Part shown: positions 43,250-46,155 of the stretch, piece after piece | How the letters are laid out: the number at the start of each line of letters is the position of its first letter | Numbering within the stretch: position 1 is the first letter of the stretch | Origin: Octopus vulgaris | Lineage: Eukaryota | Direction of reading: 5' to 3' | Assembly: GCA_951406725.2 (NCBI GenBank) | Contig: OX597833.1 | Coordinates: forward strand, 49,352,001 to 49,416,000 | Length of the DNA: 64,000 nucleotides | Translations under genes and position numbers: made by a program | The notes under the pieces: model-generated | Told to the model about the DNA's origin: nothing | The model's database searches: none | Seen by the model: the letters and a program-made list of their open reading frames with translations, nothing else

Positions 43250-44025
43250 GGAGAGAGAGAGAGAAAGAGAGGGAGAGAGGGGGATGGATGAGTAATTAGA
43301 AAGCTACAAAGCGATGTACGAAAGGCTGGTGGTTGTGGTGGCAAAGAGTAAAGTTATGGGTGACAACCTGCTAGAAGATATCGTATCGGATATTCTGAAG
43401 CGCTACAAGTGAATCCCACACACAACCGAACCCAGCAAATATTTATAACGTGTCATAAGCGACCTGTAGGCTCCAGTAAATCTAGCTTAGCATATCGTTA
43501 GCCGAACAGCTGTTGTAGGGGAAGGGACACTTACGTCAGCTAAATATTTCCTCAGTCATTCCTGTGGCTTCTACCTTTCCATAACAGATTAGTCATCATC
43601 AGCTCCTGTCGGATATTTTATCCGACGTCATCGACACCGCTACTAAACATAAATTCCTTGACGGACGGACGGCCGGACGGACTGATTACAAAACTGTACG
43701 GATGCAGGGAATGGAATGGGCGGATGGGTGTTGAGGGAAAGAGAAGTTGCTATACAGGTCAGTGTCTGAGAGCAAGGGAGAGAAAGGGAGAGAGGGAGAC
43801 TGAATGGCTACTTTTAAGACTGAAAATTTGAAATAAATAACCGAGGAGTCATTAGTAAAAATGTAAGGGCTGATTGTAAAAGCAGGCAATTTGTGAGTGG
43901 AGTCATAAAAATGGGGGGAAAATGAAACACAGAAGGGAGTAGACTAATGGAGAAAACGACACACACATGGGTATATATACACACACATACAACATTATTA
44001 ATATGTAGTTGTGTGCGCTTAGTAA

Positions 44026-44076
<51 letters not shown>

Positions 44077-44229
44077 ACACAGACTCACAGACTCACAGAC
44101 ACACAGACACAGACACAGACACACACACACGCACACACACACACATATATATATCGTCACTAATTGTGACTAAGGGTTCCGAAGTACCAAAAAATAAGAG
44201 TGAAAAACAATGCTGTAAGAAGCGTGCAG

Positions 44230-44283
<54 letters not shown>

Positions 44284-44373
44284 TGTATGTATGTATGTAT
44301 GTAGGTTTGCATGTATGTATGTATGTATGTATGTATGTATGTATGTATGTATGTGCGTGTGTGTGAGTGTATA

Positions 44374-44515
44374 CAGGAGGGGTGTATGAAAATTCTTGAG
44401 CCTTACAAAAATACAAAAGATGGTACAAGACTTGAAGTCTTGTATCTTCTGGTGAACATACAAGACTTCAAGGCTCAAAGGCCTTGAAGGCTTAAAACTT
44501 TTCATGCATCCCTCG
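44374..44515. mobile_element. Tc1/mariner-type MITE (~140 bp)
   Basis: Imperfect TIRs gaggggtgtatgaaaattcttgagcct / aggcttaaaacttttcatgcatccctc with TA on both sides; internal palindrome tacaagact-tga-agtcttgta. Confidence 0.7.
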
Positions 44516-44627
44516 TATATACAGTATATTCACTGACAGGGGATTGTGTATATTATATTGACTGTTTCTTACAGTATTAAGACTTTTTGTCTCTTATTTT
44601 TTGCAATATAGATGATATATATATAGA

Positions 44628-44692
<65 letters not shown>

Positions 44693-44696
<4 letters not shown>

Positions 44697-45063
44697 ATCA
44701 GAAATAAGCAACAAGAATGAATCCGGTAATTTAGTACAATTGTTTCATATTACAACATTTTATTAAAAGCTGTAAATATTACAGCAGATTTAAAATGCCG
44801 AGTAATCTTCAGCTAATTTTATATAGGTTTTCCAATAATATAAAGCTCTCAGATCTACATCTTTATCTGTATATTTACCTTCCCTAAGATGTTATTAATT
44901 GATCTGAGAACTTTATGTTATTGGAAAACCTATATAAAATTAGCTGAAGATTACTCGGCATCTTAAATCTGCTGTAATATTTACAGCATTTGATAAAATG
45001 TTGTAGTATGAAACAATTGTACTAAATTACCGGATTCATTATTGTTGCTTATTTCTGATTATA
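44693..45063. repeat. 163-bp inverted repeat with a 45-bp spacer, inserted in (TA)n; each arm carries a hammerhead-like motif
   Basis: Arms 44693-44855 and 44901-45063, with 7 mismatches by manual comparison. Confidence 0.95.
44938..45028 (+). ncRNA. Type I hammerhead-like motif with long stem II (mirror copy at 44728-44818 on the minus strand)
   Basis: ttag-CTGAAGA (44944-44950)-long hairpin including tgctgtaa/ttacagca-GAAAC-aatt-GTA (45010-45021)-ctaa. Stem I ttag/ctaa is correctly positioned; stem III is the palindrome ACAATTGT. Confidence 0.65.
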
Positions 45064-45210
45064 ATCACCCCGCATATTTTTATGGGTAACACTATAAAAA
45101 ATTCTGGTGCATCTAAATTAAGTGCCATATTCATTTGAATCTAAATTGTTGCTGAACTTATATATATATATATATATGTACATATATATATATACATGTA
45201 TACATATATA

Positions 45211-45349
45211 TATTTCTTTATTGCCCACAAGGGGCTAAACATAGAGAGGACAAACAAGGACAGACAAAGGGTTTAAGTTGATTACATCGACCCCAGTGCG
45301 CAACTGGTACTTTATTTATCGACCCCGAAAGGATGAAAGGCAAAATCGA
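45211..45349 (-). mobile_element. SINE family B, partial unit
   Basis: tatttctttattgcccacaagggg...gaaaggcaaaatcga. Confidence 0.85.
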
Positions 45350-45763
45350 ATATATGTATACATGTATATTCATATATGCATAAATATATACAGATACATA
45401 TACATGCACATATACATATACATACACACACACAAATACGTACACAGAAGCACACATGTGGTGCACATGCGTACACACATAGATACATAGATACACGCAC
45501 ACACTCACACGCGCGATTGTATGATAAAGCGGCGGCTGATAATACCTGTAGCCGTTATATGCAATAGAATAGACTTTGCTAGAAGTCTCAAAACTAGACA
45601 GTGTGTAAAACTGGGCTACAGGTTAAATCTACTAGCCATTGAAATTTAACCACTAGTATAAAGTTAATTAATTTAGTAGGTAAACTAGACAACTAACTGA
45701 TCCTCAGCTAGTTGGAAATCCGTTGAGACTCAATATAATTTAATACAGTTTAGTTAAGTTAAA

Positions 45764-46155
45764 TCTCTCTATATATAAAGCTGAAGTTGTCTGTGTATGG
45801 CAGGTTCGGTAGCCTTCAACTAGCACTATCTCCTCCGAGACCCTGCGGCGCAAGTTGACCAAAATTGAAAGTATGATAGAAGAAGGATTTCTCTTCCTTC
45901 CGTAGAAGAAAAAATTCAAATCGGACCATATTAAGACCAAAAATGATTTACATCAAAATGGTGCTTTTTTTCTATGAAAATCCCTATTTTTTACGATTTT
46001 TTGACTGCTGTATCGCCATTTTTCGGTGTATTTCAATCAGAAAAATGTTCACTTGAAGAGAATAACAAGCTACATAATGCAGAACTTTTACTTTTCAAAA
46101 ATTCCAAATTTGAAGAGACAAAACAAACCCGAGCAACGCCGGGAGATACTGCTAG
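45764..46155 (+). mobile_element. Non-autonomous Helitron, second subfamily
   Basis: A|TCtctctatatataaag start and the same 3' end aaacccgagcaacgccgggagatactgCTAG|T, but a largely different interior. Confidence 0.82.

Follow-up and report, generated by a model that had tools for sequence, protein, structure and literature searches.

We found that the inverted repeat under study consists, with a probability of about 0.85, of two truncated 3' ends of an abundant Penelope-like element (PLE) with Hydra-clade motifs, which lie head-to-head in (TA)n, likely arose in one insertion and each carry a predicted hammerhead with a long stem. As judged from sequence, this is a known insertion layout of a known clade, and the predicted hammerhead is a variant of modest novelty. 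The features are collected in Table 1, with positions counted in the window, that is, the whole 64,000-nucleotide stretch of Octopus vulgaris DNA that was analysed.

Table 1. Features of the two-armed insertion and its immediate flanks, in window positions.
Feature	Position	Strand	Basis
(TA)n target microsatellite, left side	44630..44697	.	sequence
Inverted 5'-truncated PLE 3' end (pLTR), tail-less	44693..44855	-	sequence comparison
Predicted type I hammerhead, left arm	44731..44816	-	core intact
Junction of the two copies, 3-nt microhomology ATC	44853..44855	.	window vs upstream sequence of other copies
Direct 5'-truncated Hydra-type PLE 3' end (spacer of the earlier note, right arm and tail)	44853..45159	+	loci comparison
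Predicted type I hammerhead, right arm	44940..45025	+	sequence, folding, covariation, core conservation
One-sided 96-nt tail with two predicted conserved hairpins	45064..45159	+	copy comparison
(TA)n-rich target microsatellite, right side	45160..45212	.	sequence

The two arms (44693-44855 and 44901-45063) are 163 nt each and 96% complementary, with exactly the 7 mismatches and the 45-nt spacing that had been reported for them. The 2.8-Gb genome was searched with the arm (best 40 of 1,724 first-look candidates scored; 30 loci fetched). The 45-bp spacer proved to be ordinary element sequence, present ahead of the arm in many of these 30 loci, and in other copies the arm runs either directly into (TA)n or into the same 96-nt extension as the right arm of the window. 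This continuity of spacer, arm and extension indicates that 44853-45159 is one continuous piece, of which bases 1-308 are matched at 92-95% in the ORF-linked loci L031, L038 and L078. By sequence comparison, part of this piece recurs, inverted, as the left arm, which overlaps it by ATC at 44853-55; this second copy stops at the proximal end point (..GATTATA), and (TA)n follows. Thus the spacer keeps the length first given to it but loses its standing as a mere spacer. Similarly, insertion in (TA)n is borne out by the TA flanks, in the window as in most flanks examined, whereas the right arm does not lie directly against TA, with 96 bp of element tail in between. The window copy, in which no ORF remnant was found, is a passive relic and ordinary debris.

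Next, we investigated the parent element. At locus L020 a GIY-YIG-like frame lies upstream of the unit, with a Pfam GIY-YIG match (E=0.0019) under the curated cut-off. A search with this endonuclease (EN) frame, in which the best 150 of 17,554 candidates were scored, yielded 30 EN loci, and in most of the 24 examined the unit follows about 0.4-0.8 kb downstream in the same sense, in line with the PLE origin suggested in the earlier note, which had asked for a test of linkage to RT/GIY-YIG ORFs. Loci L062-L064 contain frames that run from RT to EN, the longest of 947 aa, and include an Asn-rich linker. The Hydra clade is defined by RWK, DKT in place of DKG, CxCX5C, CxxC and CxH flanking E/N, absence of CCHH and (TA)n targeting (PMC8557442, section 11). 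The 947-aa L062 ORF has RWK at 27 and DKT at 114 with no DKG, CxCX5C as CKCRIKSKC at 808, CxxC..E as CQLCSME at 905 and CxH as CVH at 935; YRDD is also there, and CCHH appears absent by eye. Over 394 aa, the L062 ORF shares 69% identity with the ORF next to the subfamily to which the window copy belongs. As judged by these protein motifs, the parent is an autonomous RT/GIY-YIG Penelope-like element of Hydra-clade type. With its 3' region the L062 ORF takes up about 4.5 kb, beyond the <3 kb of Hydra elements, a shortness that is a general trait and not a diagnostic motif (PMC8557442). A Nematis or Neptune clade assignment was a first guess, dropped once the Hydra diagnostics matched.

A Pfam search of the 947-aa ORF returned no family and a PDB sequence search no match, and the homolog search turned up 15 proteins without names, at 36-45% identity. 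Beside one two-armed copy (L022:2045-2935, oriented copy) there is a 297-aa frame that resembles a mariner-type transposase. The family is covered by contigs from four runs presumed to be RNA; none of these contigs spans the window junction, and such contigs are blind to ends and editing. Between RT and EN, L062:3051-5891 (-), L063 and L064 carry long Asn-rich low-complexity inserts of variable length with the frame kept, and similar inserts are described for rotifer Penelopes (PMC3846280).

Upon examining the hammerhead, the right arm was found to carry on the plus strand a stem I of TTAG (44940-43) and CTAA (45022-25), CTGAAGA (44944-50), a 59-nt stem II (44951-45009), GAAAC (45010-14, with GAAA at 45010-13), AATT and GTA (45019-21), together with the palindromic stem III ACAAUUGU (45013-20) and a predicted cut after 45021. 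The left arm reads TTAG-CTGAAGA-(59 nt)-GAAAC-AATT-GTA-CTAA on the minus strand with its core from 44812. In this arm a conserved C-G pair close to the base of stem II is lost through one substitution, which corresponds to G>A at 45006. The claim that each arm holds an outward-pointing hammerhead-like motif is upheld by its recurrence at 44944 (+) and 44812 (-), and its assignment to type I with a palindromic stem III is supported at the level of sequence. The core (C3 U4 G5 A6 N7 G8 A9 / G12 A13 A14 / A15.1-U16.1 / H17) is intact in both window arms. Across the majorities of six subfamilies, built from 88 of 92 copies found without the core pattern, 0/11 core columns vary compared with 58/109 others (Fisher p=6e-4), the reverse of a core no better conserved than its flanks, which the earlier note had named among the signs that would speak against a ribozyme. 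Single-copy substitutions in the core (11/968, and 240/9451 elsewhere) were left unused because subfamily structure and search bias can produce this difference.

Furthermore, when the hammerhead fold was imposed on 26 chosen copies, 87.7% of cells were paired and 17/32 pairs changed on both sides, a level reached by 0/500 shuffles, in a comparison in which related copies can exceed shuffles without structure; slid-register controls on the same copies gave 30-53% paired. The changes on both sides are spread over stem I (5/6), stem II (11/22) and stem III (1/4), so that the proposed check for covariation came out in favour of all three stems, with kinship inflating the test. Stem I swaps between TTAG/CTAA, TTGG/CCAA, GCAG/CTGC and TCGG/CCGA, and stem III stays palindromic throughout, with swaps between AATT and GATC. 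An independent RNAalifold prediction also yields stem I and the greater part of stem II, which is irregular in its upper part (83% paired). Overall, the hammerhead looks real and is well supported by sequence. The closing pair 10.1-11.1 is U·U in the window subfamily and is paired in 12/26 rows (G-C 5, G·U 4, A-U 3). U·U also occurs in 6/8 motif hits among 33 metagenome loci of relatives and in 14/25 Hydra families of the published table (File S2), so it is normal for Hydra hammerheads and the earlier description of it as atypical is not supported. Hydra PLEs indeed share a 3'-end hammerhead with a palindromic stem III and often U·U beside the core (PMC8557442).

Stem II is the one unusual feature here, being by sequence more than twice the longest among published Hydra families, and in this respect the earlier remark on atypical length is well founded. 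Core to core it measures 56-60 nt in the family (59 nt in the window), whereas it spans 12-26 nt in the 25 tabulated Hydra families (File S2) and 12-18 nt in the metagenome motif hits. In minimal PLE hammerheads a helix II of 6-8 bp is already called large (PMC4209133), compared with an imperfect hairpin of about 22 bp here. Versions with a 10-40 nt stem II number only 65 in the genome and mostly resemble one-off deletions, which makes the long arm the family norm. Some shortened versions are clustered, three identical ones at C27:8172126-8185131 and two near-identical ones at C11:67861249-67923884 of the genome (G000). An Rfam scan of 44000-46000 showed no hammerhead among 70 matches at E<=10, the best of which were to miRNA models, lay on the palindrome and fell far short of the gathering scores; this miss is probably due to the length of stem II. 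At least four other sequence families have arms of 45-65 nt together with a stem III loop of 5 nt that is nearly palindromic (504 matches and 75 for the control; loci L102-L131, G000 C1). EN remnants lie within 1.5 kb upstream in only 2/30 loci of these other long-arm families (L108, L125), and their PLE link is thus only partly shown. A further hammerhead-like motif family (L098:~2494 (-), L099:~1268 (-); stem II of 77 and 44 nt) starts with G/TTGACT, ends with GCCAT and adjoins copies of the main family.

Dimeric PLE hammerheads have reportedly been treated by Lunse et al. in 2017, possibly with longer variants. No PLE hammerhead with such arms was found in the literature covered, which largely excludes subscription papers, and the supplements of PMC4209133 could contain longer variants. 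The nearest listed precedent is PLE-X1_sMoe, 54 nt core to core and flagged non-canonical (File S2), and another is given by the Naiad "half cores" 35-50 nt apart (PMC8557442). By sequence, PLE hammerheads can thus carry a stem II far longer than published descriptors allow. Ribozyme counts in such genomes are therefore likely too low, as suggested by 7,663 exact-pattern matches without an Rfam hit at the locus.

The head-to-head layout is common in this genome and is a published PLE layout; an inverted 5'-truncated copy with a one-sided tail has been published (PMC8557442, Fig. 2 legend; PMC3846280), and a 5'-truncated inverted copy is noted for Penelope-13_HM (PMC8557442), as here. Scanning the genome with the pattern CTGANGA-N50-68-GAAACRATYGTAC gave 7,663 matches and its reversed form, used as control, gave 1, which places the motif far above chance. 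Among the first 100 of these matches, neighbours within 7 kb formed 16 outward pairs, 1 direct and 1 convergent. The tail was carried by exactly one arm in 24/25 distinct pairs, by neither in 1 and by both in 0 (p about 8e-7 if arms are independent), with the flags for L003 and L142 set by eye, L014 and L019 added, and L044, which duplicates L081 in truncated form, left out. The tail hairpins are predicted at 45077-45100 and 45105-45127, where 3/14 pairs change on both sides among 11 copies, and in L073, a tandem copy, the 5' UTR and the beginning of the ORF follow on from the tail.

These observations are consistent with the in vitro behaviour of the Poseidon protein, by which both strands are cut and then extended, starting at two internal sites that mark the limits of the tail (PMC11167929). 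From this result we infer that both target ends were likely primed, one per start site, and joined after early termination. In such a course, the element's GIY-YIG endonuclease would cut both (TA)n strands. The RT would extend one end on the element RNA from the distal start site, giving the tail that ends at 45159, and would extend the other from the proximal site about 96 nt upstream, giving no tail; both cDNAs would stop early and be joined at ATC. The Poseidon tail is 30-40 bp, compared with 96 here. The hammerhead of the parent element likely acts on tandem transcripts, cutting them as a dimer formed through its palindromic stem III, for which a duplex worth -6.4 kcal/mol is predicted, possibly with help from an element protein; the Poseidon hammerhead cleaves in vitro only with protein present (PMC11167929). 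The C at 45056, absent from all of 26 ends except the two window arms, fits a single event, which is likely, and would fit equally one arm copied from the other. Within the ribozyme stretch, private variants common to partner arms occur in only 4/19 pairs, making this a weak test of a common RNA template. The two-start-site, both-strand model has so far been shown only in vitro for one Poseidon element (PMC11167929), and the many natural two-armed insertions with their long structured tail offer material for testing it.

The earlier note had taken the locus for a non-autonomous foldback element. In its full form, this reading has a MITE-like or retrozyme-like element spread as a palindrome and use its duplex to switch the ribozymes off. 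In its favour, two-armed loci of short length are frequent, and the predicted fold of a read-through transcript is, as had been anticipated, a long, almost complete duplex (-244 kcal/mol). However, the arm lies downstream of a GIY-YIG ORF in most EN loci, the arms are unequal through the one-sided tail, outward pairs show a continuous range of spacings between 135 bp and 5.4 kb, the long ones enclosing the ORF (first 100 of 7,663 matches), and 68 of these 100 matches are not in any outward pair. The junction sequence differs in 9/9 two-armed loci compared, which indicates a palindrome remade at each insertion and not a spreading unit, such as a fixed TIR unit shared by many loci. The foldback explanation is thus largely refuted and very improbable. 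No sign of a regulatory role of duplex masking was found, and nothing suggests that the predicted duplex is more than a by-product as far as seen. Non-LTR retrozymes and MITE-like foldbacks are likewise short, non-coding and ribozyme-bearing or inverted-repeat, but here there is no tandem monomer array and no fixed palindromic unit, and the sequence represents the 3' end of an element that has an ORF.

The inverted arm could also stem from self-priming or fold-back on an antisense template (Arkhipova 2013), as proposed in PMC3846280, or from a later DNA-level rearrangement, instead of two-end priming. The variant common to both window arms would suit copying of one arm from the other just as well, but the window junction has no palindrome and only 3 nt of microhomology. 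Moreover, arm copying gives no account of the fixed (TA)n site at which the arm without a tail stops in nearly all pairs, or of why the tail sits on either the longer or the shorter arm, and we regard this origin as improbable. A milder alternative, which is unlikely but deserves more weight, accepts the layout as described and takes the hammerhead for a scaffold with little or no catalytic activity that is retained for binding protein. For the window monomer the hammerhead-compatible fold lies 3.9 kcal/mol above an alternative that pairs 4/7 of the CUGAAGA bases, and this alternative is favoured by 0.2-8.7 kcal/mol in 24 of 26 rows (L155 and L132 left out). In vitro, cleavage by minimal PLE hammerheads is poor (PMC4209133), and insertion is unaffected by HHR mutations (PMC11167929). 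Against a scaffold stand the 11 invariant core positions amid other columns of which half change, and the persistence of the stem III palindrome through its swaps. A bolder extension of our preferred reading, two truncated 3' ends joined head-to-head, would make the 56-60 nt stem II a selected functional arm for docking or switching, through which the hammerhead stays inactive until RT-EN binds and which has been lengthened in several PLE families of this genome, leaving thousands of active ribozymes invisible to Rfam. The 24/25 tail rule would then be the trace left in the genome by an RT-EN dimer whose two priming sites are fixed and flagged by the tail hairpins; we consider this possible but doubtful.

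When compared with known systems, the family resembles Hydra-clade C-terminal EN+ PLEs such as Hydra-1_Obim and Penelope-13_HM (Craig et al. 2021, PMC8557442) in having RT followed by GIY-YIG, the same motifs and (TA)n. It differs from them in being longer (ORF over 947 aa, Asn-rich linker and a 3' UTR of about 0.8-1.5 kb, against a typical <3 kb) and in its tail of about 96-125 nt, besides its stem II. Inverted pLTRs of EN+ PLEs (PMC3846280; PMC8557442 Fig. 2; PMC11167929) are head-to-head with a short junction overlap, a tail at one end and an AT-rich target, as here, but in the window only 163 and 307 bp remain of the two copies, neither of which has an ORF, and the tail is roughly three times as long as the 30-40 bp that is usual. 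Opposite-strand dual hammerheads 100-700 bp apart have been described (Cervera and de la Pena 2014, PMC4209133), and the minimal or dimeric type I PLE hammerheads of that source share the short helix I, palindromic helix III and opposite-strand pairs seen here. On the right the TA run is adjoined by a SINE-like repeat (45216-45352) with 29 blastn hits in the 64-kb window, including itself. Its 3' part resembles RTE/Bov-B-type SINE tails. About 200 bp to the left of the element, at 44424-44484, a short near-perfect palindrome (44424-44444) is followed by a related imperfect copy.
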